Shown here one piece after another: positions 1 to 24,260 of a stretch of DNA of 64,000 bases. The translations under genes and the position numbers were made by a program. Under the pieces are notes generated by a model. That model searched no databases. It was not told the origin of the DNA and saw nothing but the letters and a program-made list of their open reading frames with translations. The DNA lies in NCBI RefSeq assembly GCF_045037415.1, contig NZ_CP173438.1. The stretch is one strand, 5' to 3'. Origin of the DNA: Escherichia coli (lineage in GTDB: Bacteria > Pseudomonadota > Gammaproteobacteria > Enterobacterales > Enterobacteriaceae). The first letter of the stretch is position 1. Every line of letters starts with the position of its first letter.

Positions 1-341
1 TCGTGAAAACCGTCGCTTTTCATGCTGCTGCCCAGCGCAATCATGACCGTAACAAATGAAAAATTGACTGACTGAATTGAAAGTAAACCAGAACCGACGA
101 TGCCGTAGCGGTTTACTTGTAACCAGGTACCAATACCAGAGGCGATCATCGCCATAGAAACAAGATAGGCAGTTGTTTCAGCGGAAAGCTGTAAGGCCGC
201 ACCCACGATTAACGCGGGGGTTACCATCGGAACGAAAATTGCCAACAGATGGGTAATGGCACCTACGAGAGCCTGATGAAAGGGAGGGCGATCCTCCAGT
301 TCAAATATAAGGTCAGAACCTGCATGGTTTATATCAGACAT
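1..341 (-). CDS. xanQ: Xanthine permease (NCS2 nucleobase transporter), N-terminal part only; gene runs off the window start
   Basis: ATG at 341 on complement, open frame to position 1; N-terminus MSDINHAGSDLIFELEDRPPFHQALVG followed by hydrophobic TM segments; position downstream of xdhD. Confidence 0.85.
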   Translation of the reverse strand, partial: MSDINHAGSDLIFELEDRPPFHQALVGAITHLLAIFVPMVTPALIVGAALQLSAETTAYLVSMAMIASGIGTWLQVNRYGIVGSGLLSIQSVNFSFVTVMIALGSSMKSDGFH

Positions 342-467
342 CCCTTCACTCCTTTTAAAGTAAATTTGATCATCTGAATTAGTAAAATAAATTCCCACGA
401 ATTTGGGGCGCAGGACGCCTTGAGAACGGCTTATCTCATTTTCGCAGTCACTATTTAGTCATCGTTC

Positions 468-496
468 AAACAGAGAAACAGGCCGCCGAAGCGGCC
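468..496 (-). terminator. Rho-independent terminator after xdhD
   Basis: GC hairpin GGCCGCcgaaGCGGCC (481-496) followed on the minus strand by TGTTTCTCTGTTT, 10 nt after xdhD stop. Confidence 0.6.
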
Positions 497-505
497 ATTT
501 ATTAC

Positions 506-3376
506 TTATATTTTTTCCAGCGCGGTGAGTATTTTCTCCGGTGTGAAATGCCATTCGCGTAACCAGATGCCGCAGGCATCGTGAATTGCGGTAGCAATCG
601 CCGGAGCTGCGCCATTTACACCGATTTCCGAGATCGATTTCGCCCCGAATGGGCCGACTTTATCGTCGCTCGGCACCAGCACAGCGCGGAAATCACGCGG
701 AATGTCACCAATTTTCGGTGCGCCGTAACTGCGTAAATCACGCGTTAACGGGTGACCTTCGGCGTCATAAATGATCTCTTCGCTCATACTGTGGCCGATA
801 GCACGCAGGGTGGCACCGTAGATTTGTCCCAACGCTAACTCTGGATTGACCGGTGTACCGCAGTCCAGCAAGGCGTAGAATTTATCCAGGCGGATTTCAC
901 CCGTACGCGTGTTGACGGCAACTTCAGCGAAGTTTGCGCCATACGGGAAGGCGAAATCAGGTGTGATATAACTGCCAGTTCCCACCAGTGAACCAAAGCC
1001 GGTGCCGGTTTCGCCTTTATGGGCTATCTCTCCGAAACTAACTTCGCCTTTCTTGCCGCGAACGACGCCCGGCGTTGCTAGTTGAACATCTGCCACTGGC
1101 TCACCCAATATTTGCGCGCCGTGGAACAGGATTTTCTCCCGCAGATTTTCCGCTGCCAAACGCGCAGCGTTACCCGAGAAGCAAGTACCGGACGAGGCAT
1201 ATGCGCCTTTATCAAACAGTGCATGATCGGTATCACCAGAGATAACATGCACGTCCTGCGGTGGGCAGTGCAGCACTTCTGCTGCCAGTTTGGTCACCAC
1301 AGTATCCAGACCAGTACCAATATCCGCACCACCGGAATGAACGATAAAGGTGCCATCCGATTCCAGTTTGATCATGCAGTTAGCCTGATCGATATCCGGG
1401 ATACCCGATTTCTGCATGATAATGGCGACGCCGCGACCGATGTGCCAGTCACCATTTTGCGGTTTTGGTGAAGACCATTGGATCATCTCGCGACCCTGAC
1501 GCAGGATCTCTTCCAGTGCGCAGCTGGCGGCGGAAGGAACGGAGGTCGGCGCTTTACCTTCACCGATTGCACCGAGAATTTTCAGCTCTTGCCCTTCGTG
1601 TACCCGGTTACGTTCGATAATTTCCAGTTGGTCGATCTGTAACTGTTCAGCCAGTTCCGCTAATGCCATGGTGATAGCGAAGTTACCTTTCGGTGCGCCA
1701 TAACCCTGATAAGCACCATTTGGGCAAATGTTGCTGTAGTAGGTGGTGACCTGAAAATCGACGTTATCGCATGGATATAACGGCAGCGACAGCGCCGGTC
1801 CGTTACACGGTACGGTGAGTGAGTGGTTACCGTAAGGACCCGTGTTGGCGCGGAAATCCATCTTCACTGCCGTCAGGCGACCATCTTTTTTCGCGCCCAG
1901 TTTGACGGTGACTTTCGCGACGTGACGAGAGGTGTTAGCAATAAACTCTTCTTCACGGGTGTAGCGGAAAAGTACCGGACGCCCGGTCACGCAGGTTGCC
2001 CAGGCGCACACTTCTTCCAGCAGGATGTCCTGTTTGGAACCAAAACCGCCGCCAACTCGCTCTTTAATGACATGAACTTTATGCTGTTTCATGCCCACGA
2101 GGCGCGCGACCTGGCGGCGTAAGTGCCATGGTACCTGGGTGGAGGCGTGGATCACCAGACGATCGCCGTCCATACGGGTAAAGCAGATATGTGTTTCAGT
2201 CGGGCACTGCTGTGCCTGCGTTGAATTATAGGTTCGCTCAATGATCACATCGGCATCGGCAAAGCCTTTGTCCATATCGCCAATATGACCATGAATACTG
2301 GCGGCGATATTTTTGCGTGGGCGAGAACCGATCGGGAAGTTGATGATCATATGCTCGCCGCGCTGGGCTGCATGGCTGTTATCATCTTCCAGAGTATCTG
2401 GCGCACCAGCAACATACACCACCGGTTCATCGTGCACGACAGGCGCATCTTCCGCCATTGCCTCGTCAATCGACATTACCGGCTTAAGCACTTCATATTC
2501 AACGTCGATGAGCTTCAGTGCTTCGAGCGCAATGTCTTCACTTTCGGCTACTACCGCAGCAACGCGATCGCCGACGTGACGCATTTTCTTGCCGAACATT
2601 CGGCGGTCAAGCGGTGACGGTTCCGGTGCGCTCTGACCACCCGGGGTATAGTAAATATCCGGGCAATTCAGGTGAGTAATAACGTGAACGACGCCCGGTA
2701 AGGCTTCAGCTTTGCTGACATCCAGATGAGTAATCAGTGCGTGAGCGTGTGGGCTACGTAACATTTTAATGACGCAGGCGTCAGCCGTTACGCGATCTTC
2801 AACATAGCAGGGTTTCGCCTGCACCATTTTCGCGGCATCAGTTTTAGGATAATGCTTGCCAATGACTTCAAGGTCGTCACGGAAAGTCGGAGCGATATCA
2901 ATGGTGGCCTGCGGATTATTTTTACGTGCAACCGCCAGTTCAATGACCTGATAGTATTGCTGCCAGCCAGCATCGCGGCTAAACAGACCTGAGAGTGCGT
3001 CGTCGATCTCTTCGCGGGTAGGTGCGTCGATGCGATCGAGAAGATCGGTGATAATCAGAGCCGCAGCTGGATCGTTATAACCAGACTGCACCACGCCAAC
3101 ATCAACCATGGCCTGTTGAACCAGACTTAACTCATTCCATTTGCCCAGAGATTCTGCGGTACGAATATCTGCCTTCTCTAACTGTGCGGCGATAAGCAAG
3201 GACGCGTTAACGATATTACCGTTAAAGATAATTGCGTCAGAACCGGCAAACCCAAAGCCATCATCACTGTTGCGTACAGAGTGCATTCCCATGTTAAACA
3301 ACAGCTTTTGCACGTTTTCGCCTGGATTAACGGTTAGCTCCTGAGGCGCGCCATTTAAAGTAAAGTGGATGATCAT
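506..3376 (-). CDS. xdhD: Molybdopterin-binding hydroxylase subunit (xanthine dehydrogenase family) with N-terminal ferredoxin-like domain lacking Cys ligands
   Basis: 956 aa ORF; GGGFGSK motif, aldehyde oxidase/xanthine dehydrogenase-like body; 4-nt overlap with ygfM. Confidence 0.93.
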   Translation of the reverse strand: MIIHFTLNGAPQELTVNPGENVQKLLFNMGMHSVRNSDDGFGFAGSDAIIFNGNIVNASLLIAAQLEKADIRTAESLGKWNELSLVQQAMVDVGVVQSGYNDPAAALIITDLLDRIDAPTREEIDDALSGLFSRDAGWQQYYQVIELAVARKNNPQATIDIAPTFRDDLEVIGKHYPKTDAAKMVQAKPCYVEDRVTADACVIKMLRSPHAHALITHLDVSKAEALPGVVHVITHLNCPDIYYTPGGQSAPEPSPLDRRMFGKKMRHVGDRVAAVVAESEDIALEALKLIDVEYEVLKPVMSIDEAMAEDAPVVHDEPVVYVAGAPDTLEDDNSHAAQRGEHMIINFPIGSRPRKNIAASIHGHIGDMDKGFADADVIIERTYNSTQAQQCPTETHICFTRMDGDRLVIHASTQVPWHLRRQVARLVGMKQHKVHVIKERVGGGFGSKQDILLEEVCAWATCVTGRPVLFRYTREEEFIANTSRHVAKVTVKLGAKKDGRLTAVKMDFRANTGPYGNHSLTVPCNGPALSLPLYPCDNVDFQVTTYYSNICPNGAYQGYGAPKGNFAITMALAELAEQLQIDQLEIIERNRVHEGQELKILGAIGEGKAPTSVPSAASCALEEILRQGREMIQWSSPKPQNGDWHIGRGVAIIMQKSGIPDIDQANCMIKLESDGTFIVHSGGADIGTGLDTVVTKLAAEVLHCPPQDVHVISGDTDHALFDKGAYASSGTCFSGNAARLAAENLREKILFHGAQILGEPVADVQLATPGVVRGKKGEVSFGEIAHKGETGTGFGSLVGTGSYITPDFAFPYGANFAEVAVNTRTGEIRLDKFYALLDCGTPVNPELALGQIYGATLRAIGHSMSEEIIYDAEGHPLTRDLRSYGAPKIGDIPRDFRAVLVPSDDKVGPFGAKSISEIGVNGAAPAIATAIHDACGIWLREWHFTPEKILTALEKI

Positions 3377-4152
3377 ACGGCTTCCTCCCCAGCCTGTTGG
3401 CAGTCGGCATACAGGTCGGCTACCAGAACTCCCGTGATATAGCGTTTATAGGCCACGCTGCCCCGCAAATCTTCCTGCGGGAAAATGGCGTTGGCGACAG
3501 CCTGTTCCAGTGCATTGCCTTCCAGATTTTGAGTTTCAACATCATGCAGACGCAGTGCTTTACTGGCGACGCCATCCAGCGCAATTCGCATACCGTCGTG
3601 GTCTGTTATTGCAACGGCTGCCGTCACGACGGTTAAACCTGCCTGAGAACGGCTAATTTTGCGAGTCGCACAGGTGCGATACGGATCTTTAATGATAATT
3701 TCGGTTAACAGGCGATCGCATGGGCAGGCCAGGTAGTCCTCGATTGACAGCGTTTCGCCGTTGCCAAAAACCAGTTCAGCATCCAGTGCCAGCAGGACGG
3801 GAAGCAGCACTGACTCTTCTTGCCGGGCGGCAATTTCACCACCAATGGTCGACTGATTACGAACATGGCGAGAGTAGACAAAACCGAGAGCTTCCCGCAG
3901 TGCTGCAGGAATAAATCGCGCATCACGCAGTGGCTGCAAGCGAGACATTGCGCCAATTCGTAGTGCACCGTTATCCCAGTCAATCCAGTCCAGCTCCAGA
4001 TCCTGCAAGGAAATGGCAATCTTTTTATCGGTACGGGTTGGTGTAGCGTTGAGTTTGCTGCCCCCGGCGAACCAGACGGCTTCATCCTGGTAGCGGCGCT
4101 TCAGTTCCAGCGCCTGTTCGACAGAGTCGGGTCTGAAAAATTGTTCAATCAT
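3373..4152 (-). CDS. ygfM: FAD-binding subunit of molybdenum hydroxylase (CoxM/XdhB-like)
   Basis: 259 aa; FAGGSKL motif resembling AGGTDL of XdhB; ATGA overlap with xdhD. Confidence 0.9.
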   Translation of the reverse strand: MIEQFFRPDSVEQALELKRRYQDEAVWFAGGSKLNATPTRTDKKIAISLQDLELDWIDWDNGALRIGAMSRLQPLRDARFIPAALREALGFVYSRHVRNQSTIGGEIAARQEESVLLPVLLALDAELVFGNGETLSIEDYLACPCDRLLTEIIIKDPYRTCATRKISRSQAGLTVVTAAVAITDHDGMRIALDGVASKALRLHDVETQNLEGNALEQAVANAIFPQEDLRGSVAYKRYITGVLVADLYADCQQAGEEAV

Positions 4153-4202: not shown

Positions 4203-5531
4203 TTATGCCAGCGCATCCATCCGACGCCACATACTGGCAGCGGCTTTTCTGGCTTGCGCATAAATGGAATCGCAATCGAAGTTAAACTGACGGTCTTCAT
4301 AGACCATCACACCATTGACCATCACGCTGTGAACGCTACCTGAGCCCATACCGAAAGCGATATGCCCGGCGATATTGTCTGCCAGCAGCGGCGTCGGCGA
4401 GTTGTAATCGCAAATGGTTAAATCGGCTTTGTAACCGGCTTCCAGAAGCCCAAATTTCGCGCCAAAGTTGCGGCTCATCAGTTCGTTGCCGTTAGCCAGT
4501 GCTTTGGCAAAACTGTCAGGCCACAGCGGGCCACCCGCATCGCGATGTTTAAAGAAGGCAAATTTCATCTCTTCAAACATGTCCGAACCAATGCCGTCCG
4601 TTCCCAACGCCAGATTGCGGATGTCGCTAAGGTGATGGTTGTAGCCGACATGGTTGTTCATGTTTGAACGGGCGTTATGCACCAGGAACGCATCGCGCTG
4701 ATTGAGTAGGACGATGTCATCTTTCGACAGGTACAGCCCATGAGCGACCAGCGTTTTGCTGTCGATGAGATCGAATTGCGCAAGTCGTGCCAGCAGGTCT
4801 TTGCCGTACCAATGGTGACTGTAGGAAACGTCGTAAAGGTCTTCCGCAACGTGAATATGCAAACCACGACCTGTGCTTTTCACGGCTTCACGCAGCATCT
4901 CCAGACCGGCATCCGGCACGGTAAACGGCGCGTGAGCGCCGATATGTGCTTCCACCAGATACGGCTCGGTTGCTGCTTTCTTCGCCTCATCAATCTGACG
5001 GGTGAAGCGGATGTTTTCTTCTACACCTTCCTGCAACTCTTTGATGCCGTTGTTACGGTCAGTAGTTTCAAAACAGGTCATCGCGCGCAGGCCAACTTTT
5101 AAAAATGCGTTGCGCAATGTGGAGAGCGACCCGTCGATATACGCCGGAGAGGCATGGTGATCGATAACCGATGTACATCCGCTCTTAATCGCTTCCAGGG
5201 AACAAATCAGTCCGCTGTAATAGAGCGACTCTTCATCAAGAGCGCGATCGAGCCGCCACCAGAGATTTTTCAGCGTTGAGATGAAATCCGGGCAGGGGGC
5301 GATGTTTGCCATAATTCCGCGGGAAAGCCCCGAGTAAAAATGGTTGTGCGAGCAGACAATTCCCGGCATCACAATCCGACCATGCATCTCTTTGTAGCTG
5401 GCATCGGGGTAGCGTTGCGTCAGGGCATCGCCGATAGCGACAATCACATCATTTTCGATGGCGATATCAACGCCTTCCTGCACTTTCGCCGGGTGTAACT
5501 GCACTGCGGTGACATTCTTCAGAATCAACAT
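4203..5531 (-). CDS. ssnA: Amidohydrolase-superfamily protein (chlorohydrolase/aminohydrolase-like)
   Basis: 442 aa; CSHNHFYSG metal-binding HxH motif; 2-nt gap to ygfK. Confidence 0.9.
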   Translation of the reverse strand: MLILKNVTAVQLHPAKVQEGVDIAIENDVIVAIGDALTQRYPDASYKEMHGRIVMPGIVCSHNHFYSGLSRGIMANIAPCPDFISTLKNLWWRLDRALDEESLYYSGLICSLEAIKSGCTSVIDHHASPAYIDGSLSTLRNAFLKVGLRAMTCFETTDRNNGIKELQEGVEENIRFTRQIDEAKKAATEPYLVEAHIGAHAPFTVPDAGLEMLREAVKSTGRGLHIHVAEDLYDVSYSHHWYGKDLLARLAQFDLIDSKTLVAHGLYLSKDDIVLLNQRDAFLVHNARSNMNNHVGYNHHLSDIRNLALGTDGIGSDMFEEMKFAFFKHRDAGGPLWPDSFAKALANGNELMSRNFGAKFGLLEAGYKADLTICDYNSPTPLLADNIAGHIAFGMGSGSVHSVMVNGVMVYEDRQFNFDCDSIYAQARKAAASMWRRMDALA

Positions 5532-9635: not shown

Positions 9636-10406
9636 GTGAAAAGTATAATTGACCCATCGGCATTATTCATTGATTTAGGCGCGCAGAAACGTCCCACTGT
9701 GATTTCTATTGTTGGTGCTGGGGGGAAAACCAGCTTGCTTTTTTGGCTGGCAGAACTGTTCCAGGCGAGTGGCAGGCGTGTATTAATCACTACGACGACA
9801 CATATGTTTATGCCAACATCTCACTGGCCCGTGGTTTTCTGTCGTGATCCCGCCATGCTTCCTCATGCGTCTTTTATATCCCCCATTTCATTTTGTTTTC
9901 ACTGCTGGAAAGCGAACCAGGGAAAAGTGCAGGGATTTACGCCAGAAGCGATTGATGCACTGGTACAACGACCAGAGTGTGACGTAATTCTCATTGAGGC
10001 AGATGGCTCGCGTGGAATGCCGTTAAAAGCGCCTGATGAGCACGAACCTTGCATACCTAAAAGCAGTTGCTGCGTGATTGCTGTGATGGGAGGACATATT
10101 TTGGGTGCGAAAGTGAGCACAGAAAATGTCCATCGCTGGTCGCAGTTTGCTGATATTACTGGGTTAACACCTGATGCACCCTTGCAACTGAGCGATCTCG
10201 TTGCGCTGGTTCGCCACCCTCAGGGCGCGTTTAAAAACGTACCGCAAGGTTGTCGGCGAGTCTGGTTCATTAACCGTTTTTCTCAATGTGAGAATGCGAT
10301 TGCGCAAAGCGAGCTCCTTCAACCGCTGCAACAACACAACGTAGAGGCAATCTGGCTGGGCGATATACAAGAACATCCTGCAATCGCGCGCAGATTTGTG
10401 AATTAG
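9636..10406 (+). CDS. yqeC: P-loop accessory protein of selenium-dependent molybdenum hydroxylase systems
   Basis: 256 aa, GTG start; Walker A IVGAGGKTS. Confidence 0.85.
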   Translation: MKSIIDPSALFIDLGAQKRPTVISIVGAGGKTSLLFWLAELFQASGRRVLITTTTHMFMPTSHWPVVFCRDPAMLPHASFISPISFCFHCWKANQGKVQGFTPEAIDALVQRPECDVILIEADGSRGMPLKAPDEHEPCIPKSSCCVIAVMGGHILGAKVSTENVHRWSQFADITGLTPDAPLQLSDLVALVRHPQGAFKNVPQGCRRVWFINRFSQCENAIAQSELLQPLQQHNVEAIWLGDIQEHPAIARRFVN

Positions 10407-10453
10407 CGGCCCGGGTATTCCGGGTTACTGAAAGGATATCCATTGAGGTTGGT

Positions 10454-12079
10454 ATGAATATTTTCACAGAGGCTGCAAAACTCGAAGAGCAAAATTGTCC
10501 GTTTGCGATGGCGCAAATTGTTGATAGCCGAGGCTCAACCCCCCGCCATTCTGCACAAATGTTAGTGCGCGCCGATGGTTCTATCGTCGGTACAATTGGT
10601 GGCGGAATGGTTGAGCGGAAGGTGATTGAAGAGTCGCTTCAGGCATTGCAGGAACGTAAGCCGCGATTATTCCATGGACGTATGGCTCGTAACGGTGCGG
10701 ATGCTGTCGGGTCAGATTGTGGAGGTGCAATGTCAGTATTTATCAGCGTCCATGGTATGCGTCCACGTCTGGTGTTGATTGGTGCGGGGCATGTCAACCG
10801 GGCGATAGCCCAGAGTGCGGCGCTATTAGGATTTGATATCGCCGTTGCCGATATTTATCGCGAAAGCCTCAATCCTGAACTATTCCCACCATCAACCACG
10901 CTTCTCCATGCTGAGTCGTTTGGTGCGGCAGTGGAAGCACTGGATATTCGCCCTGATAATTTTGTCCTGATTGCCACGAATAATCAGGATCGTGAAGCCC
11001 TCGACAAACTCATTGAACAACCCATTGCATGGCTGGGGTTGCTGGCAAGTCGCCGCAAGGTTCAGCTTTTCCTACACCAATTGCGTGAGAAAGGCGTGGC
11101 TGAAGAACATATTGCCCGTTTACATGCGCCCGTTGGTTACAACATAGGTGCGGAAACGCCGCAGGAGATCGCCATCAGCGTGCTGGCAGAAATATTACAG
11201 GTGAAAAATAACGCGCCGGGTGGGCTGATGATGAAGCCTTCTCATCCTTCCGGACACCAGCTGGTGGTGATTCGCGGTGCGGGGGATATCGCCAGTGGTG
11301 TAGCGCTACGTCTGTATCATGCGGGTTTTAAAGTGATCATGTTGGAAGTGGAAAAACCGACAGTGATTCGTTGTACCGTGGCGTTTGCCCAGGCCGTGTT
11401 CGATGGCGAAATGACGGTCGAAGGCGTCACCGCCCGCCTGGCAACCAGCTCTGCGGAAGCGATGAAACTTACCGAACGCGGATTTATCCCTGTGATGGTA
11501 GATCCCACCTGTTCATTGCTTGATGAACTGAAACCGCTTTGCGTGGTGGACGCTATTCTGGCGAAACAGAATTTGGGAACGCGGGCAGATATGGCACCAG
11601 TAACAATCGCGCTTGGGCCGGGCTTTACTGCAGGGAAGGATTGTCATGCGGTAATTGAAACAAATCGCGGGCACTGGCTCGGTCAGGTGATTTACTCAGG
11701 TTGTGCGCAGGAGAATACCGGTGTTCCCGGCAATATTATGGGGCATACCACCCGACGAGTGATCCGCGCTCCTGCTGCAGGCATTATGCGATCCAACGTG
11801 AAATTAGGCGATCTGGTGAAAGAGGGCGATGTCATTGCCTGGATTGGTGAGCATGAAATTAAAGCACCGTTGACGGGGATGGTGCGTGGCTTGTTGAACG
11901 ACGGACTGGCCGTGGTCGGTGGTTTTAAAATTGGTGATATCGATCCTCGTGGTGAAACGGCTGATTTCACCAGCGTTTCTGATAAAGCCCGGGCGATTGG
12001 CGGCGGCGTACTTGAGGCGTTAATGATGTTGATGCATCAGGGCGTTAAAGCGACAAAAGAAGTGCTGGAAGTGGCTTAA
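10454..12079 (+). CDS. yqeB: XdhC/CoxI-family molybdenum hydroxylase maturation protein
   Basis: 541 aa; Rossmann-like LVLIGAGHV segment; follows yqeC by 47 nt. Confidence 0.88.
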   Translation: MNIFTEAAKLEEQNCPFAMAQIVDSRGSTPRHSAQMLVRADGSIVGTIGGGMVERKVIEESLQALQERKPRLFHGRMARNGADAVGSDCGGAMSVFISVHGMRPRLVLIGAGHVNRAIAQSAALLGFDIAVADIYRESLNPELFPPSTTLLHAESFGAAVEALDIRPDNFVLIATNNQDREALDKLIEQPIAWLGLLASRRKVQLFLHQLREKGVAEEHIARLHAPVGYNIGAETPQEIAISVLAEILQVKNNAPGGLMMKPSHPSGHQLVVIRGAGDIASGVALRLYHAGFKVIMLEVEKPTVIRCTVAFAQAVFDGEMTVEGVTARLATSSAEAMKLTERGFIPVMVDPTCSLLDELKPLCVVDAILAKQNLGTRADMAPVTIALGPGFTAGKDCHAVIETNRGHWLGQVIYSGCAQENTGVPGNIMGHTTRRVIRAPAAGIMRSNVKLGDLVKEGDVIAWIGEHEIKAPLTGMVRGLLNDGLAVVGGFKIGDIDPRGETADFTSVSDKARAIGGGVLEALMMLMHQGVKATKEVLEVA

Positions 12080-12087
12080 ATGAAAAT

Positions 12088-12113
12088 GGCCGGATGGTAT
12101 TACCCATCCGGCC
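12088..12113. terminator. Bidirectional hairpin terminator between convergent yqeB and yqeA
   Basis: GGCCGGATGG-tatta-CCCATCCGGCC followed by TTTAAATT. Confidence 0.6.
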
Positions 12114-12119
12114 TTTAAA

Positions 12120-13052
12120 TTACTGACAAATCACCGTTCCGGTTTTGCCTTCAATCCCTTCTTTCGCTTTGCTCAATACGGTAATCAGTGCTTCACGACC
12201 TGCGCGAGAGCGAGCAAACGAGGCGGCAGCTTCCACTTTAGGCAGCATAGAACCTTTCGCAAAATGACCTTCTTCGATAAAGCGTTCAGCATCACTTAAT
12301 GACAGGCGATCGAGCCACTGTTCATTCTCTTTTCCGAAGTTAATGGCCACTTTTTCTACCGCAGTCAGAATGATCAGCATATCGGCATCGATCATTTCTG
12401 CTAAACGGGCACTGGCCCAGTCTTTATCGATAACCGCGCTGGCACCACGCAGATGGTTACCTTCACGAATAACAGGGATACCACCACCGCCAACGGTGAT
12501 CACCACCTGTCCGGCATCTACCAGAGCTTTAACCGTTTCTTTTTCAATGATATCAACCGGTTTTGGCGAAGCAACGACACGACGATAGCCGCGACCCGCA
12601 TCTTCTTTCAGAGTGTAACCCTGTTTTGTCAGTAGCTCTGCTTCTTGCTCGGTAAAGAACGAACCAATCGGCTTGGTCGGGTTGAGGAATGCCGGATCGT
12701 TAGCATCGACTTCGACCTGGGTAACCAGCGTTGCTACAGGTTTATTAATGCCACGAGAAAGCAGTTCTTCTCTTAAGGCGTTTTGTAGATCGTAACCAAT
12801 ATAACCCTGGCTTAAGGCAACACAGACAGACATCGGCAGCATTGGCGAGTGCGCTTCAGTTTTTGCGGCAGCTTCAAAGGCCTGGTTAATCATGCCCACC
12901 TGTGGCCCGTTGCCATGAGTGACGATGACCTCATGTCCCTGGGCAATTAAATCAACAATTGCCTGAGAAGTAATTTTTACCGCTTTCATTTGTCCGGCCA
13001 GGTCATCGCCCAGCGCATTCCCGCCCAGGGCGAGAACAATTTTCTTACTCAT
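12120..13052 (-). CDS. yqeA: Carbamate kinase
   Basis: 310 aa; N-terminus MSKKIVLALGGNALG typical of carbamate kinases. Confidence 0.93.
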   Translation of the reverse strand: MSKKIVLALGGNALGDDLAGQMKAVKITSQAIVDLIAQGHEVIVTHGNGPQVGMINQAFEAAAKTEAHSPMLPMSVCVALSQGYIGYDLQNALREELLSRGINKPVATLVTQVEVDANDPAFLNPTKPIGSFFTEQEAELLTKQGYTLKEDAGRGYRRVVASPKPVDIIEKETVKALVDAGQVVITVGGGGIPVIREGNHLRGASAVIDKDWASARLAEMIDADMLIILTAVEKVAINFGKENEQWLDRLSLSDAERFIEEGHFAKGSMLPKVEAAASFARSRAGREALITVLSKAKEGIEGKTGTVICQ

Positions 13053-14537: not shown

Positions 14538-15749
14538 TTATTCGGTTGCCAGCCAGCTTAATGGGATTGCAGCGTACATAGCGGCACAGGTTACCAGGTG
14601 AGATTTCCAGGTTTTTTCGTTTGGCGCGTGCGCTTCCGGTTCTTTACCGGGGCCAAAACCGATGACCGGAATGCCGTGGCGACCCATGATGGATACGCCA
14701 TTAGTCGAGAAGGTCCACTTATCAACGACAGGCGCTTTACCAAACAGCCCTTCATAAGCATTCACCAGTGCTTTAACGGTGAAGTGATCTTCTTCCACTT
14801 TCCAGGTCGGGAAGTAGCATTCGGTTGGGTAAACCAGGCCAGTCCAGGACGGGCGGTCGTAGTTGTACATAGAAACGACAGCATTCGCTTTTTGTACTGC
14901 AGGCAGGGCACGGATCTCGTCCAGCGCGCCTTCCCAGGTTTCGCCCCAGGTCAGACGACGGTCGATTGAAACTGCGCAGCTGTCTGCGACAGCGCAACGG
15001 CTTGGGGAGGTGAAGAAAATTTCAGAAACGGTGAGGGTGCCTTTGCCGAGGAATTCGTCATAACCCAGACGTTGGGAGAGTTCTTGTAATTCGCCAAGAA
15101 TCGGACCCATTTTGAAAATGGCGTTATCACCGCGTTCTGGTGCCGAACCGTGGCAGCTAACACCCTGAACATCAATACGAATTTCCATACGACCGCGTTG
15201 ACCACGGTATACCTGGCAGTCGGTTGGTTCGGTACTGACCACAAATTCCGGGCGAATGCCGGATTGTTCAATAATGTACTGCCAGCACAGGCCGTCGCAG
15301 TCTTCTTCCTGCACAGTACCGGTAACCAGCAGGGTATATTCATCTTCCAGACCGAGATCTTTAATGATTTTACCGGCATATACCATAGACGCCATGCCGC
15401 CTTCCTGGTCGGAAGTACCACGACCACCGATCAGCTCGTCGGTTTCCATGCCTTCATACGGATCGAAGTCCCAGTTTTTGATGTTGCCAATGCCGACTGT
15501 ATCGATATGAGCGTCCATTGCCACCAGACGCGGGCCGTGGCCGATATAACCGAGAACGTTGCCCATTGGGTCGATTTCAACTTTATCGAAGCCGACTTTT
15601 TCCATCTCTTCTTTAATACGATGTACTACGCGTTTCTCGTCGCAGCTTTCACTGGGAATAGCAACCATATCGCGCAGGAAGCGAGTCATGTCTGCCTGGT
15701 AATCTTTTGCTTTTTCAAGAATCAGTTTGAATGGAATATTCTTAGCCAT
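14538..15749 (-). CDS. ygeY: M20-family metallopeptidase/deacylase (ArgE/DapE-like)
   Basis: 403 aa; M20 family assignment rests mainly on length and operon position (by recall); no specific motif checked. Confidence 0.9.
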
Positions 15750-15806
15750 TATTTTTCTCCAGATTTTTTACTCCCCGTTTTGCAGGGAGCAGTTCCAATA
15801 GGGTGA

Positions 15807-17003
15807 TTAAGGTGCTACAGCGTGTTTGCCTTCCCAGACAACTTCGCGGTAGTGCTTCACGTCGGTGTCGCCTTCAGTGCTGATAACCAGCACCACGGCA
15901 TCTTTGTTCAGCGCCAGTTTTTCCATCAGGCTTTGACGTTGCGGGTGATAATGAACCGCTGCGAGAACGCCCAAACCGACAGCGCCGGATTCACCGGAGA
16001 TGATGCGCGGGTCGTTGCCGTACGGATTACCCAGCACGCGCATACCTAATGCGGCAACGCTGTCCTGGCAGGAGATGAATTGGGTGGCGCAGTTACGTAG
16101 GATTTCCCAGCCCAGCGGGTTAGGTTCGCCGCAGGCCAGGCCCGCCATGATGGTGGCCATATCACCGCCAACGTTGACGATGTCGCCTTTGACGCCGGAG
16201 CGATAAATACAGTCAGCTTTGTCAGGTTCAACAATAATGCTGTGCAGATTTTGCGGGCTATAGACGTCGACCAGATAACCCAGCACACCACCGGCCATTG
16301 CACCGACACCTGCTTGCAGCAGAACGTGTGTCGGGGTTACGCCCATTTCACGCATTTGCTCGACGGCTTCATCCGCCAGTGTTGCGTAGCCTTGCATGAT
16401 CCAGGTTGGGATTTTGGTGTAACCTTCCCATGCCGTGTCCTGTACCACTTCCCAGCCGTGCTGCTGCGCGTGTTGCATGGTCAGGCGAACGGTATCGTCA
16501 TAGTTCATATCCGTGACGATGCACTCGGCACCGAGGTTTAGAATGGCGTCAACGCGTTCCTGAGCAGAACCTTTCGGCATGTAAATCACCGCATTCTGTC
16601 CGAGTTGCTGAGCGGCCCATGCCACACCGCGCCCGTGGTTGCCGTCGGTGGTGGTCGCGAAAGTCATTTTTTCGCCAATGGCATTTTTCAGGTGCTCAAA
16701 TGATAGCGTTTCGATATCAAGATGATATTTTTCACACAATAATTGAGCGATGGCGTATGCGCCGCCGAGCATTTTGAAGGCGTTCAGACCGAAGCGTTTT
16801 GATTCGTCCTTAACGAGAATTTTCTTTACACCAAACAGGTTTGCGAGATCGTCCAGCGCACAAAGCGGTGTTGGGCGATAACCAGCAATTTTCTGGTGGA
16901 ACTGGCGTGCCAGTTTTGCCTGGCTTTGCGAAAAAAGCGGTGATGTTTCGCCGTTGAAAAATTTGTTATCGGCGATATCAATCTTTAATGAGAAAACGGA
17001 CAT
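15807..17003 (-). CDS. ygeX: PLP-dependent diaminopropionate ammonia-lyase
   Basis: 398 aa; fold-type II PLP enzyme features; position between ygeY and ygeW. Confidence 0.9.
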   Translation of the reverse strand: MSVFSLKIDIADNKFFNGETSPLFSQSQAKLARQFHQKIAGYRPTPLCALDDLANLFGVKKILVKDESKRFGLNAFKMLGGAYAIAQLLCEKYHLDIETLSFEHLKNAIGEKMTFATTTDGNHGRGVAWAAQQLGQNAVIYMPKGSAQERVDAILNLGAECIVTDMNYDDTVRLTMQHAQQHGWEVVQDTAWEGYTKIPTWIMQGYATLADEAVEQMREMGVTPTHVLLQAGVGAMAGGVLGYLVDVYSPQNLHSIIVEPDKADCIYRSGVKGDIVNVGGDMATIMAGLACGEPNPLGWEILRNCATQFISCQDSVAALGMRVLGNPYGNDPRIISGESGAVGLGVLAAVHYHPQRQSLMEKLALNKDAVVLVISTEGDTDVKHYREVVWEGKHAVAP

Positions 17004-17060
17004 ATCCTATCCTTTTGGCCTCTGGAAATAGAGGGCCGACCAGCTGATCGGCCCGAGGGG

Positions 17061-18251
17061 TTATTTCACGCGTTCTTGCGCTTCTTTCAGCAGTTGCTCG
17101 AGCAGTGCACCTGGTTTGGCGTATTTACGGGACAGGATCATCGCGGCGATGATATAAGGCTTCCAGCTGGCTTCTTTGTAGGTAGCGATACGGTATTTTT
17201 CGAATACGCCTTCAGTCACTTCACCTTCTTTGCAGGATACGCCGCTGATATCAGCTGGCAGGCAGTGCATGTACAGGGCTTCGCCATCACGGGTCAGCTC
17301 CATCATCTCTTCGGTACAATGCCAGTCTTTGTGCTGTGCGTTCTGTGCCAGACACTGTTTTTCCAGCGCTTTCAGTCCTTCGTGATCGTTCGCACGCAGC
17401 AGTTCAGTACGCTCTTCCATCACTTTGTAAGGTGCCCAGGACTTCGGATAAACGATGTCTGCGTCTTTGAAGGCTTCTTCCATGCTGGTGACCTGACGGA
17501 AGCTACCACCGGAGGCTTTAGCATTGTTTTTAGCAACTTCAACGACATCCGGGATCAGGTCGTAGCCTTCCGGATGGGCCAGGGTGACATCCATACCGAA
17601 GCGGGTCATCAGACCGATGATGCCTTGTGGTACAGAGAGCGGTTTGCCATAGCTTGGGGAGTAGGCCCAGGTCATGGCGATTTTTTTACCTTTCAGGTTT
17701 TCCAGTGAACCAAAGTGTTCACGTAACCATGCCAGATCAGCCATTGATTGAGTCGGGTGGTCAATATCGCATTGCAGGTTCACTAAAGCCGGACGCTGCG
17801 GCAGCACACCCTGCTTGTAACCGTCATCAAGTGCAGCGCCAACTTCACGCATATAGGCGTTGCCTGCGCCCAGATACATATCGTCGCGAATACCGATAGC
17901 GTCAGCGCAGAAGGAGATCATATTGGCGGTTTCACGCACGGTTTCGCCGTGAGCGATTTGTGATTTACCTTCGTCAAGATCTTGTTGTGCAAGGCCGAGC
18001 AGGTTAAGCGCGGAAGCATAAGAGAAGCGGGTACGGGTGGAATTGTCGCGGAATACGGAAATACCTAATCCACTATTAAAGACTTTGGTTGAGATGTTTT
18101 CAGCACGCAGTGCTTTTAACGCGGCGGCAACGTCCAGTACTTGTTTCAGTTCGTCTGGCGTCTGTTCCCACGTTAACAAAAAATCTTTTTCATGCAGGTG
18201 AGAGGTCAGCGAATTGATATCCTTAATCAGCTCATTAACAGTTTTCATCAT
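17061..18251 (-). CDS. ygeW: Transcarbamylase of unknown specificity (ATCase/OTCase fold)
   Basis: 396 aa; carbamoyl-phosphate motif STRTR and HCLP motif both present. Confidence 0.93.
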   Translation of the reverse strand: MMKTVNELIKDINSLTSHLHEKDFLLTWEQTPDELKQVLDVAAALKALRAENISTKVFNSGLGISVFRDNSTRTRFSYASALNLLGLAQQDLDEGKSQIAHGETVRETANMISFCADAIGIRDDMYLGAGNAYMREVGAALDDGYKQGVLPQRPALVNLQCDIDHPTQSMADLAWLREHFGSLENLKGKKIAMTWAYSPSYGKPLSVPQGIIGLMTRFGMDVTLAHPEGYDLIPDVVEVAKNNAKASGGSFRQVTSMEEAFKDADIVYPKSWAPYKVMEERTELLRANDHEGLKALEKQCLAQNAQHKDWHCTEEMMELTRDGEALYMHCLPADISGVSCKEGEVTEGVFEKYRIATYKEASWKPYIIAAMILSRKYAKPGALLEQLLKEAQERVK

Positions 18252-18343
18252 AAAGTCCCGATAGTGGAATGACAGGCAAAGTGGTTTATTTCACTGTGAC
18301 GTGCCAAAGTGATTGGTGTTTTCACAGCTATACCTCGGACTAA

Positions 18344-18357
18344 CAATAAGTGTGCCA
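18344..18357 (-). promoter_or_regulatory. Weak candidate sigma-54 promoter upstream of ygeW
   Basis: Minus strand TGGCACACTTATTGTT: perfect -24 TGGCAC but -12 reads TTGT instead of TTGC. Confidence 0.25.
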
Positions 18358-18400
18358 GAATTATCCACGCGGCTGCGAAAGGCTAATTTGACGGATAATG

Positions 18401-18416
18401 TGTGGGGTTGATCACA
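18401..18416. promoter_or_regulatory. CRP-like palindrome in ygeW-ygeV divergent region
   Basis: TGTGGGGTTGATCACA (TGTGg-N6-TCACA). Confidence 0.3.
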
Positions 18417-18726
18417 TATTGATGCCAGTTTCCGGTTGTTTGTAAAATACGAAAACGTTTGGCTTTTTTTATTACGTTATTTATTTGCTGCTAAGTATCA
18501 GAAATAAGATAAAGAGGCAGGCTATCTCTCTTCAGTTTGATAAACTTGCCGCTGTAATTCTCATATTGATATAGAAATGTGATATCTCTTCCATAATTTT
18601 ATTAGAAAGTGATAAAAATCTTATGTTTTTATCAAAGCCAATTTCGCCTGAGTTAATATCATCATGATCTGTGAACCATCAACGTCTTCAATGATCGACT
18701 TTTAAGTAAGTCTGGAAGGTAAAGCT

Positions 18727-20543: not shown

Positions 20544-21023
20544 TTACTTTGTTTTCTCGCAATCCAGAACTGTATTTACAATCATCTGATACCCCGTGCA
20601 GCGACAAAGATTTCCCGCCAGTCCACGACGAATTTCCGTAATGGTTAATGGCTTCTCGCGTGGTTTCGCCAGCATTGCCGTGGTAGCCATAATCAGGCCC
20701 GGCGTACAAAACCCGCATTGCACTGCACCAGATTTCGCATAAGCCAGTTGGACATGAGAAAGTTTACCGCCTTTCGCTTCACCTTCCAGCGTGCGGATCT
20801 CTTTTCCTTCAGCCCAGGCCGCAAGGAATAAGCAACTGTCTATCGCAGTGCCGTCGACCAGCACCGTACAGGCACCACATTCACCCACGCAGCACCCTTG
20901 TTTGACACTTAGCAGTCCTTGTTCGCGGAGTAATTCCGAGAGCGGCGTGCCTGGTGCGGCGTGAAGCTGAAAAGGCATCCCGTTAATGGTGCATTCGATG
21001 GTAATTGTTTCGCTGTGATTCAT
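20544..21023 (-). CDS. xdhC: [2Fe-2S] iron-sulfur subunit of xanthine dehydrogenase
   Basis: 159 aa; [11 protein letters not shown] and CGFCTPG...CRCTGY cluster motifs. Confidence 0.95.
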
Positions 21024-21897
21024 TGCAATTTCCCCCCGCCGCGGCGACGGCTTCGCTAATCACTTTTTTGGTCATCGTCTGGATGAGATGCAGACGAAAC
21101 TCTTTACTGGCCCGCCATGACGAACGCGGGGCGACATCTTGCAGGACTGATTCGCTGATGGCTTCCAGCGTTTGCAGGTTTAATGGCGCATTTTGTGCAG
21201 TCTGTTCGGCATGTTGGCAGCGAATCGGCGTTGGCGCGGCAACACCAAATGCCAGGCGTAATTCGCTGAAATTGCCGTTATCCAGTCGGCAATGTGCGGC
21301 GCAGCCAATTGTTGAAATATCCATTGCGTCGCGCATGGCATATTTAAAATGCGCGCTGCCCGCGTGTTCTTTCGGCTGTGGCGGAAAATGAAAGGCGACA
21401 AGGATTTCGTCATGCTCAAGAGACACTTTGCCCGGCCCGGTGTGAAAGCCATTAATCGGGACGAAACGAACACCGCGCGGGGAGTGGATCTCCAGTTTCG
21501 CGTCATAAATTAGCGTTGGCGTGGCAGAATCTGCGCTGGTGGCACCGTTGCAAATATTTCCGCCGTAGGTGGCGACATTACGGATCTGCGGCCCGGCGAT
21601 TGATGCAGCCGCAGCACATAACGCCGGGAGATGACGTTGAGTTACAGGATCTTCAATGAGCTGGGTAAATGTCGTTGCAGAGCCGATACGTAGCGCGCCA
21701 TCTTCCGCCAGCGTAATTCCCCGCAGCTCCGCCAGATTATGAATATCAACAATATGGCGATAACGGTCATTGTGATGGTGAAGCTGTATCAGTACGTCAG
21801 TGCCACCGGCGAGCAGTTTGGCCTGCGGGTTGTCAGTCAGCAGGTTGATGGCATCGGCAAGGGTTGCTGCGCGATGGTAAGAAGCAAAATCAAACAT
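20983..21897 (-). CDS. xdhB: FAD-binding subunit of xanthine dehydrogenase; here 304 aa with altered C-terminus (possible frameshift)
   Basis: [13 protein letters not shown] motif; ORF extends 41 nt into xdhC; expected length 292 aa by recall. Confidence 0.85.
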
Positions 21898-24166: not shown

Positions 24167-24260
24167 GCATGATTCACCCGTAGCGGTTGCTTCCCGCGCT
24201 TCCATAGAAATCCCCTCGGTTTGAACATTTGGTTCTTATGGCAAAGATTTAGTCTTAGCA

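Follow-up and report, generated by a model that had tools for sequence, protein, structure and literature searches.

The N-terminal [2Fe-2S]-type domain of Escherichia coli XdhD has lost all eight cluster ligands

Canonical enzymes of the xanthine oxidase (XO) family carry two iron-sulfur (Fe-S) relay centres, FeS I and FeS II, between the molybdenum cofactor (Moco) and flavin adenine dinucleotide (FAD). What becomes of the electron route when the ligands of both centres are missing? The question is raised by the gene xdhD of Escherichia coli, located on the minus strand near the start of a 64,000-nucleotide stretch of contig NZ_CP173438.1 (the window). XdhD catalyses the entry step of a recently discovered gut-bacterial route of urate degradation, a route relevant to gout and hyperuricaemia and already the object of engineering in probiotic E. 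coli; the assignment of XdhD as a urate reductase / 2,8-dioxopurine dehydrogenase is taken from Li et al. 2025 (PMC12507026). An initial annotation of the window claimed that the first ~165 residues of XdhD correspond to an Fe-S subunit without ligands, and that the enzyme would need another protein for electron transfer. We find that the N-terminal domain of XdhD is very probably a cluster-less homologue of the two-cluster module. The features of XdhD that carry this finding, and the paralogue that serves as internal control, are as follows.

506-3376, minus strand: xdhD, 956 amino acids (aa); fused pseudo-[2Fe-2S] module, α/β-hammerhead and two Moco-binding domains; urate reductase / 2,8-dioxopurine dehydrogenase
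2882-3376, minus strand: XdhD residues 1-165 (codons 1-165), cysteine-free homologue of the two-cluster [2Fe-2S] small subunit
3161-3376, minus strand: residues 1-72, plant-ferredoxin-like subdomain; former FeS II site, FAD-proximal
2942-3160, minus strand: residues 73-145, Fer2_2-type helical subdomain; former FeS I site, Moco-proximal
3236-3268, minus strand: residues 37-47, SDDGFGFAGSD, in place of the G-C-x4-C-x2-C loop (C38 to D, C44 to A, C47 to D)
3200-3202, minus strand: S59, where the former FeS II site had its fourth ligand
3065-3088, minus strand: residues 97-104, QSGYNDPA, in place of Q-C-G-Y-C-T-P-A (C98 to S, C101 to N)
2963-2983, minus strand: residues 132-138, FSRDAGW, in place of L-C-R-C-T-G-Y (C133 to S, C135 to D)
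2807-2809, minus strand: C190, first cysteine of the protein, in the linker ahead of the hammerhead domain
20544-21023, minus strand: xdhC, canonical eight-cysteine [2Fe-2S] subunit of XdhABC; paralogue and internal control in the window

XdhD as a whole scores 2116.7 bits against TIGR03313 (cut-off 1101.9). Pfam finds Fer2_2, Ald_Xan_dh_C (E = 1.9e-30) and the Moco-binding domains of the XO family, MoCoBD_1 (E = 3.8e-72) and MoCoBD_2 (E = 9.4e-68). The segment 2882-3376 (495 bases) is 100% identical to xdhD of RefSeq E. coli genomes and was found in 5176 of 5426 complete E. coli genomes. The NCBIfam model of XdhC, NF007387, matches residues 3-145 of XdhD with E = 1.2e-17, and further small-subunit models (pucE, XdhC_XDHase, glyceraldehyde dehydrogenase gamma and HcrC) match as well. 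Pfam Fer2_2 (PF01799) covers residues 73-145 with E = 5e-12 and also matches all 38 cysteine-less orthologues scored, while Pfam Fer2 (PF00111) matches neither residues 1-72 of XdhD nor any of these 38 sequences. BLASTP of the N-terminal domain against XdhC gives 31% identity (E = 3e-21), and residues 1-76 alone align with XdhC 7-80 (E = 2e-12). The top sequence match in the PDB is nicotinate dehydrogenase NdhS (3hrd_D, E = 1.7e-17, residues 3-154). The homology to XdhC/CoxS-type subunits proposed in the initial annotation is borne out by these profile and pairwise comparisons. One separate protein, P0101 (453 aa), shares 99% identity with XdhD over residues 1-166, beyond which its sequence is unrelated and RHS/YD-repeat-like by eye; a rearrangement or a chimeric assembly is the probable cause.

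The predicted fold agrees with the sequence matches. An AlphaFold2 model of residues 1-172, built from the alignment of 38 cysteine-less orthologues, has a mean predicted local distance difference test score (pLDDT) of 86.4 and a predicted template-modelling score (pTM) of 0.82; its lowest-confidence stretches are the three former cluster loops. Foldseek places this model at template-modelling scores (TM) of 0.75-0.86 to NdhS, CoxS, HcrC and the N-terminal domains of the Desulfovibrio aldehyde oxidoreductase MOP and of xanthine dehydrogenase (XDH), with 0.79-0.86 for 3hrd_D, CoxS and HcrC together and 0.79/0.84 and 31% identity for NdhS (3hrd_D) itself. The full-length model reaches pLDDT 91.4 and pTM 0.91; its N-terminal blocks are mostly at or above 90 and the third loop dips to 83. 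It superimposes over the full chain with TM 0.83-0.88 on MOP (1sij/1dgj), the only solved enzyme in which Fe-S and Moco parts are fused in this way, and therefore the module is predicted to occupy the place of the cluster-bearing module of canonical enzymes. By prediction, XdhD thus retains the arrangement of the family, in which a β-grasp ferredoxin subdomain and a four-helix bundle lie between the Moco and FAD modules. Taken by these matches and models, residues 1-165 are a homologue of the two-cluster [2Fe-2S] module of XO-family enzymes with the length and the predicted fold of that family.

None of the eight ligands is left in this module. At the FeS II site (plant-ferredoxin type, C-x4-C-x2-C-x11-C) XdhD has D38, A44, D47 and S59, and at the FeS I site (Fer2_2, C-x2-C...C-x-C) it has S98, N101, S133 and D135. 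The paralogue XdhC keeps all of its ligand cysteines, at 44, 49, 52, 64, 103, 106, 140 and 142. The mapping of the eight positions is unambiguous because XdhD aligns without gaps over the whole domain with orthologues that keep the cysteines. XdhD has 16 cysteines in total and none in residues 1-189, a stretch that also lacks conserved histidine; the first is C190, close to the residue ~188 first noted, and the three motif strings quoted in the initial annotation occur in the sequence as quoted. At the cysteine frequency of the rest of XdhD, their absence from 189 residues has p ~0.02. The stronger point is that the eight ligand columns are 100% cysteine in 42 of 42 cysteine-bearing relatives. 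The loss of all eight ligands, as first claimed, is therefore confirmed, and we infer with high confidence that the domain binds no Fe-S cluster. Since the eight ligands are replaced, the canonical Mo - FeS I - FeS II - FAD relay should be absent from E. coli XdhD; no compensating cysteine is found in XdhD or in its flavin subunit YgfM.

The replacement is not restricted to E. coli. All of the 120 closest database homologues (at least 74% identity; Enterobacterales, Photobacterium and Paludibacterium) lack the ligands, and the motifs SVRNSDDGFGFAGSD, VQSGYNDPA and FSRDAGY/W are nearly invariant among them. At ~50% identity both states are represented: a Vescimonas-type cluster from Oscillospiraceae (1913 members) and two other representatives have no ligand, and one Holophaga-type protein and one other have 8/8. 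We read the ligand columns at 80 loci from a scan of one genome per species. Here 39 XdhD-family members are cysteine-less and read D-[ACT]-D-[NS] / S-N-[ISV]-D in these columns; their sources are Gammaproteobacteria, Clostridia, many Spirochaetota, one Bacteroidetes metagenome-assembled genome (MAG) and one Desulfovibrio MAG. Another 18 family members carry all eight cysteines. Most of these are MAGs from the environment (Spirochaetota, Planctomycetota, Terriglobia, Riflebacteria, Dependentiae and Elusimicrobia), and two are gut or rumen MAGs. No intermediate cysteine count occurs among the 80 loci. The ancestral eight-cysteine form of XdhD survives in other phyla, and, judged by the same columns, the canonical relay is absent also from the XdhD relatives of Gammaproteobacteria, Clostridia and many Spirochaetota. 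As an anecdotal observation on habitat, the eight-cysteine forms derive mostly from groundwater, fen, spring and soil MAGs, and the cysteine-less forms mostly from gut, rumen, host-associated or facultative organisms.

The residues that took the place of the cysteines are among the best-conserved positions of the domain. The mean column identity of the domain is 61% and, in the cysteine-less class, five of the eight replacing residues are at least 92% conserved, three of them invariant. D38, D39, D47, N101, G42 and G45 are invariant in the 39 orthologues; R134 is 100% conserved, S37, S46 and S98 95%, and D135 92%, and position 59 is Asn or Ser. F43 and F132, which adjoin former ligands, are present in 97% of the cysteine-less class and are Ser/Leu in the cysteine-bearing class. 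The two classes are not separated by any insertion or deletion. As judged from this conservation, the replacement of the eight ligands is a fixed and selected state and not decay. A new cysteine motif or an insertion elsewhere in XdhD was ruled out, with no indels and no gained conserved cysteine. The series G40-x-G42-x-x-G45 was ruled out as a new dinucleotide-binding motif; G40 is present in only 46% of the cysteine-less class, and the glycines were inherited from the ancestral cluster loop.

The Moco part differs between the classes at three class-specific positions only, given as cysteine-less/eight-cysteine: S447/A, L452/V and G885/K. The three may be where the Moco part once touched FeS I. 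At residue 885 (window about 722-724) the eight-cysteine forms and XdhA have Lys, and the cysteine-less forms Gly. E606 is invariant in 83 of 83 aligned family members of both classes, and XdhA has an alignment gap at this position; Glu606 was proposed by Li et al. to direct urate C6 dehydroxylation (PMC12507026).

The cluster ligands were lost more than once. In neighbour-joining bootstraps on the Moco part, two cysteine-bearing clades are well supported (1.00 and 0.985). Monophyly of the cysteine-less forms has a bootstrap of 0.015 (0.275 without two outliers), and the deep order within the XdhD family is not settled by these trees. The D/D/S/N/D pattern common to these forms may point to a single origin with later horizontal spread. 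A second cysteine-less clade of three sequences (L069 about 10001-12910, L078 about 9989-12955 and L081 about 306-3212; bootstrap 0.995) is nested among eight-cysteine sequences, within Chloroflexi/Actinobacteria-type relatives ~36-37% identical to XdhD. Its replacing residues are A/S, T, D/A and E/D at FeS II, and S, S/A, D and E at FeS I. By its position and residues, this second loss of all eight ligands appears robustly independent. At least two losses are thus firmly indicated. The sole exception to the all-or-none state is P0006 (L086:1479-4310), an XdhD-like protein with 39% identity on a single 4.4-kb metagenomic contig with a YgfM-like FAD-subunit gene upstream; it has lost the FeS II ligands (C, G, D, A) and kept the four FeS I cysteines, and may be an evolutionary intermediate.

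How, then, do electrons reach the molybdenum? The genes around xdhD are as follows.

3373-4152, minus strand: ygfM, 259 aa, FAD-binding subunit (TIGR03312, 487.6 bits); 4-bp overlap (ATGA) between its stop and the start of xdhD
4203-5531, minus strand: ssnA, amidohydrolase of the same pathway and operon context (TIGR03314; PMC12507026)
5534-8632, minus strand: ygfK, 1032-aa Fe-S flavoprotein reducing 2,8-dioxopurine, the next pathway step (TIGR03315)
20983-21897, minus strand: xdhB, FAD subunit of canonical xanthine dehydrogenase
21908-24205, minus strand: xdhA, Moco subunit of canonical xanthine dehydrogenase

ygfM, ssnA and ygfK lie upstream of xdhD and are co-directional with it, and the gene context ygfK-ssnA-ygfM-xdhD with yqeB/yqeC nearby is present, the families of these open reading frames (ORFs) being confirmed by NCBIfam. 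E. coli YgfM matches FAD_binding_5 (E = 5e-20) and, marginally, CO_deh_flav_C (E = 8e-4). Its FAD motifs, AGG[TS] and R98-N99-x-T102-x-G104-G105, are conserved to the same degree in the two classes. In both, xdhD has a YgfM-like gene as neighbour, as is also the case beside P0006 and in L069 and L078: it is directly upstream in five of the five eight-cysteine loci inspected, and in the second cysteine-less clade in both of the two loci (of three) that have upstream sequence. E. coli YgfM has four cysteines, the C143-P-C145 pair, C161 and C251. They are not conserved even among enterobacteria, and some YgfM orthologues of the cysteine-less class have none; YgfM was ruled out on these grounds as the source of a substitute cluster. 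At its C-terminus, R168, D172, G193, G194 and R230 are at least 94% conserved with eight-cysteine partners versus 30-60% with cysteine-less partners, and in the cysteine-less class some Spirochaetota and Oscillospiraceae have a truncated chain of about 226-235 aa. This pattern suggests relaxed constraint on the part of YgfM that formerly communicated with the clusters. A protein call of 1215 aa (P0242, 43 Logan-assembly members) joins YgfM and XdhD in frame, with a frameshift near the end of ygfM (…YITGV/SGSRPVCRLPTGWGGSR/MIIHF…); this fusion, at the junction that corresponds to window 3373-3376 and is normally the ATGA overlap, could be a real variant or an assembly error.

Further partners were sought by all-against-all clustering of neighbouring ORFs. 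No third gene beyond YgfM was found to be consistently linked to cysteine-less xdhD among the neighbouring ORFs across phyla, and none of the 17 cysteine-bearing loci has a stand-alone Fe-S subunit gene near xdhD. A complete canonical XDH with its own eight-cysteine subunit lies within 10 kb at 19 of 40 cysteine-less loci versus 0 of 17 cysteine-bearing loci (Fisher p = 4e-4; 17 of 26 versus 0 of 7 where at least 4.5 kb upstream is available), counts that are not phylogenetically independent. It is usually directly upstream and co-directional, as xdhA-xdhC-xdhB-ygfM-xdhD or xdhA-xdhB-xdhC-ygfM-xdhD, in several phyla (loci L020, L025-L027, L029, L031-L033, L035, L036, L042, L045, L049, L053, L054 and L060). 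No canonical XDH was found beside the loci of the second cysteine-less clade. Canonical XDH was rejected as a required class-specific partner on account of this absence and of the yanthine (2,8-dioxopurine) that accumulates in ΔxdhA E. coli; the adjacency may reflect no more than common descent and the order of the pathway, from xanthine through urate to yanthine. In Mogibacterium/Clostridiales MAGs (L027:18592-19383 and 15588-18584, and L054) we observed a co-directional block xdhA-xdhB-xdhC-ygfM-xdhD-ssnA-ygfK with a ~263-aa ORF, and a third Moco-subunit gene farther downstream. Among the eight-cysteine loci, the Holophaga-like L003 also has ygfK-like, ssnA-like, yqeB/xdhC-like, yqeC and selD genes, and further pathway or selenium/Moco-maturation genes occur in L003 and L005.

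Published biochemistry bears directly on the electron route. When tagged XdhD is produced from a plasmid of low copy number and affinity-purified, a ~30 kDa band co-purifies, which the authors take as YgfM (Li et al. 2025, PMC12507026). With reduced nicotinamide adenine dinucleotide (NADH) and urate this preparation, for which only XdhD and the ~30 kDa band are reported, makes 2,8-dioxopurine; the assay was an end-point measurement by liquid chromatography-mass spectrometry at 10 µM enzyme, and no rate, iron, sulfide, flavin or spectrum is given (PMC12507026). In ΔxdhD cells urate accumulates and no yanthine is made, and in ΔxdhA cells xanthine is not consumed and yanthine accumulates more (PMC12507026). 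Li et al. model XdhD-YgfM on R. capsulatus XDH and never mention 2Fe-2S or cysteine (PMC12507026). A commentary gives an AlphaFold 3 heterodimer of XdhD and YgfM with an interface pTM of 0.94 and calls YgfM "the electron-transfer module", and Liu et al. 2025 describe the Clostridium sporogenes enzyme with Fe-S domains and used artificial donors. RefSeq names XdhD "Mo/Fe-S-binding subunit" and N-terminal fragments "2Fe-2S iron-sulfur cluster-binding protein". The published accounts and RefSeq hence assume a canonical Mo/Fe-S/FAD chain; in the searchable literature, which leaves subscription journals and curator notes outside, we found no statement that the XdhD cysteines are missing.

The reading we favour, and judge on the whole to be probable, is that the N-terminal domain is a cluster-less scaffold, that the canonical relay is absent and that electrons pass directly and slowly from flavin to pterin. 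A [2Fe-2S]2+(Cys)4 unit has a net charge of 2-. In XdhD the carboxylates and the Phe residues would fill and charge-compensate the two former cluster pockets, and the pseudo-domain would be kept as a structural bridge that docks YgfM onto the Moco domain. NADH would enter at the YgfM flavin, and electrons would reach the molybdopterin through the pseudo-domain, by slow long-range transfer or by a conformational change, with no third protein. The loss of the clusters would be tolerated since a slow rate suffices for the pathway. This flavin-entry, direct-transfer route is preferred among those considered because the FAD motifs and the ygfM adjacency are kept in both cysteine-less lineages, and because a ~30 kDa protein co-purifies and NADH supports product formation in vitro; taken alone, it is a plausible route that falls somewhat short of an even chance. 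Carried further, XdhD-YgfM would be a working flavin-molybdenum enzyme without an Fe-S relay, in which electrons cross a pseudo-domain of more than 20 Å or the domains move, and which evolved at least twice from eight-cysteine ancestors as a selected alternative architecture and not a defect. We put this forward tentatively.

Several points weigh against this reading. The absence of clusters from XdhD-YgfM is read from sequence, and the scaffold and charge-compensating roles of the pseudo-domain are proposals. The centre spacings in bovine XDH and carbon monoxide dehydrogenase are about 15, 12 and 8 Å, and with the clusters gone the flavin-pterin gap should exceed 20 Å. For such a gap the Moser-Dutton rule predicts rates of only about 1 to 0.001 per second. 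Transfer from FAD to Mo is thus where the reading is weakest. An end-point assay without a rate may leave room for a trace contaminant or for mediation by free flavin. The relaxation and truncation of the YgfM C-terminus could mean that the flavin no longer talks to the molybdenum at all.

One alternative is that a further redox protein feeds XdhD in vivo (YgfT/AegA with YgfS and formate dehydrogenase H (FDH-H), YgfK, or a ferredoxin), and that YgfM with NADH is not physiological. The missing intramolecular relay and an in-vitro NADH assay without kinetics are in its favour. In summaries of Iwadate and Kato 2019, formate-dependent urate degradation in E. coli genetically needs aegA/ygfT, AegA/YgfT are proposed to carry FDH-H electrons to NADP+ or directly to urate, and ygfT is urate-induced. 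However, the role of AegA/YgfT could be just to produce NAD(P)H from formate, ygfS and ygfT are located beyond the window, and no third gene accompanies the cysteine-less class consistently across phyla. In the predicted structure the pseudo-domain covers the pterin-facing surface, as in MOP, and the XdhD preparation with the ~30 kDa protein works with NADH. We consider a third-protein donor possible but rather unlikely. The electron-supply claim of the initial annotation stands only in part: its statement that XdhD has no 2Fe-2S clusters of its own is strongly supported by the 0/8 ligands, by substitutions fixed across the clade and by the want of compensating cysteines, while the need for another protein is possible but not established. 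As to the partners it named, YgfM appears as a docked FAD subunit without clusters, and YgfK is the next enzyme of the pathway.

The former pockets could instead hold a hard metal (Mg, Ca, Mn or Fe) or another cofactor through D38, D39, D47, S98, N101 and D135, with a structural or relay role. The conservation of the replacing residues, well above the domain mean, is consistent with this, as is the fact that both losses replaced Cys mainly by Asp, Glu, Ser or Thr. The former loops are also the least confident parts of the isolated model, although in the full-length model this holds only for the third loop (pLDDT 83). However, the gained Phe43 and Phe132 suggest that the pockets are filled by side chains, the second clade has a different residue pattern without Phe gains, and we know of no low-potential redox cofactor held on Asp, Ser or Asn alone. 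We regard such a site as unlikely.

A ping-pong mechanism of transhydroxylase type is less probable still, and we hold it to be quite improbable. Here a second substrate, e.g. another purine, would reduce the molybdenum, and FAD on YgfM would serve only for occasional reductive reactivation. Such a mechanism would fit the all-or-none loss of both clusters, at least twice, with FAD retained; the canonical XDH beside nearly half of the cysteine-less loci and beside none of the cysteine-bearing ones, as in a tight xanthine-to-urate-to-yanthine module; and the larger amount of yanthine in the ΔxdhA strain (PMC12507026). The same ΔxdhA cells, however, leave xanthine, which means no detectable use of xanthine as reductant by XdhD (PMC12507026). 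NADH supports the reaction in vitro, and the association with XDH is neither phylogenetically independent nor present in the second cysteine-less clade.

It is highly improbable that clusters are still present, with residues other than cysteine as ligands or with cysteines that YgfM or the Moco domain would provide in trans. The four YgfM cysteines, with their C143-P-C145 pair, and the RefSeq name "Mo/Fe-S-binding subunit" could be quoted for it, but these cysteines are not conserved and are absent from some YgfM of the class, XdhD has gained no conserved cysteine, and the RefSeq annotation is inherited from the family model. To our knowledge no [2Fe-2S] cluster without any cysteine ligand has been described. 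An artefact (a non-homologous, misaligned or decaying sequence) can practically be dismissed: apart from the failure of Pfam Fer2 on residues 1-72, all points the other way, with E-values of 1e-12 to 3e-21 to Fe-S subunits, residues 1-76 alone included, a fold at TM ~0.8, a gap-free alignment to eight-cysteine orthologues, strong conservation, the region carried by 5176 of 5426 E. coli genomes, and a published ΔxdhD phenotype and enzyme activity (PMC12507026).

For a cluster-less XdhD, the purification and assay of the enzyme change: no Fe-S reconstitution would be needed, and a flavin-only visible spectrum is expected. The assumed electron donor is called into question. Pathway engineering may be limited or guided by the missing relay, and the eight-cysteine orthologues may be faster. 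Nature has here set up an experiment of its own: one enzyme occurs in one gene context both with its relay centres and without them, which would allow direct tests of the contribution of the [2Fe-2S] centres and the reach of flavin-to-pterin transfer. The names "Mo/Fe-S-binding subunit" and "2Fe-2S cluster-binding protein" would amount to a systematic annotation error on thousands of sequences.

The XdhD protein and its reaction were known already; what is new is a conserved XO-family clade with FAD and Moco and no Fe-S relay, accompanied by eight-cysteine natural controls and one convergent repeat. The closest comparison is with the eight-cysteine orthologues themselves (Spirochaetota, Holophaga-like, Planctomycetota, Terriglobia, Riflebacteria and other MAGs; e.g. 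P0375 / L003), which are 49-54% identical to XdhD over the full length. They share with it a similar length, E606 and an upstream ygfM, with a 4-bp overlap where coordinates were read; unlike XdhD, they keep the eight ligands, and the C-terminal positions of their YgfM are conserved. In the window itself, XdhC has the same two-subdomain layout, but with 8/8 cysteines, and it is free-standing and partners XdhA/XdhB. The closest solved relative by sequence and predicted fold is NdhS of Eubacterium barkeri (3HRD chain D), also from a selenium-dependent molybdenum hydroxylase. NdhS is a separate 160-aa subunit with two [2Fe-2S] clusters, whereas the XdhD copy is fused to the Moco subunit and has no ligands.

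The Clostridium sporogenes 2,8-dioxopurine dehydrogenase (XdhAC/DOPDH; Liu et al. 2025) catalyses the same reaction in the same pathway and is selenium- and molybdenum-dependent; it is described with iron-sulfur-binding domains, and it was assayed with artificial donors. The C. difficile counterpart has no YgfM subunit and is only about 25% identical to E. coli XdhD (PMC12507026). The aldehyde oxidoreductase MOP (1SIJ, 1DGJ) has the same single-chain order as XdhD, from Fe-S module through linker to Moco domains. MOP has both clusters and no FAD subunit, while XdhD has the FAD subunit and no clusters, the reverse combination. 4-Hydroxybenzoyl-CoA reductase (1RM6/1SB3) is another XO-family enzyme that works reductively (dehydroxylating) like XdhD, and its gamma and alpha subunits match XdhD structurally. 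It has two [2Fe-2S] clusters and a [4Fe-4S] cluster in the FAD subunit. That enzyme has extra redox centres; XdhD went the opposite way and lost them.

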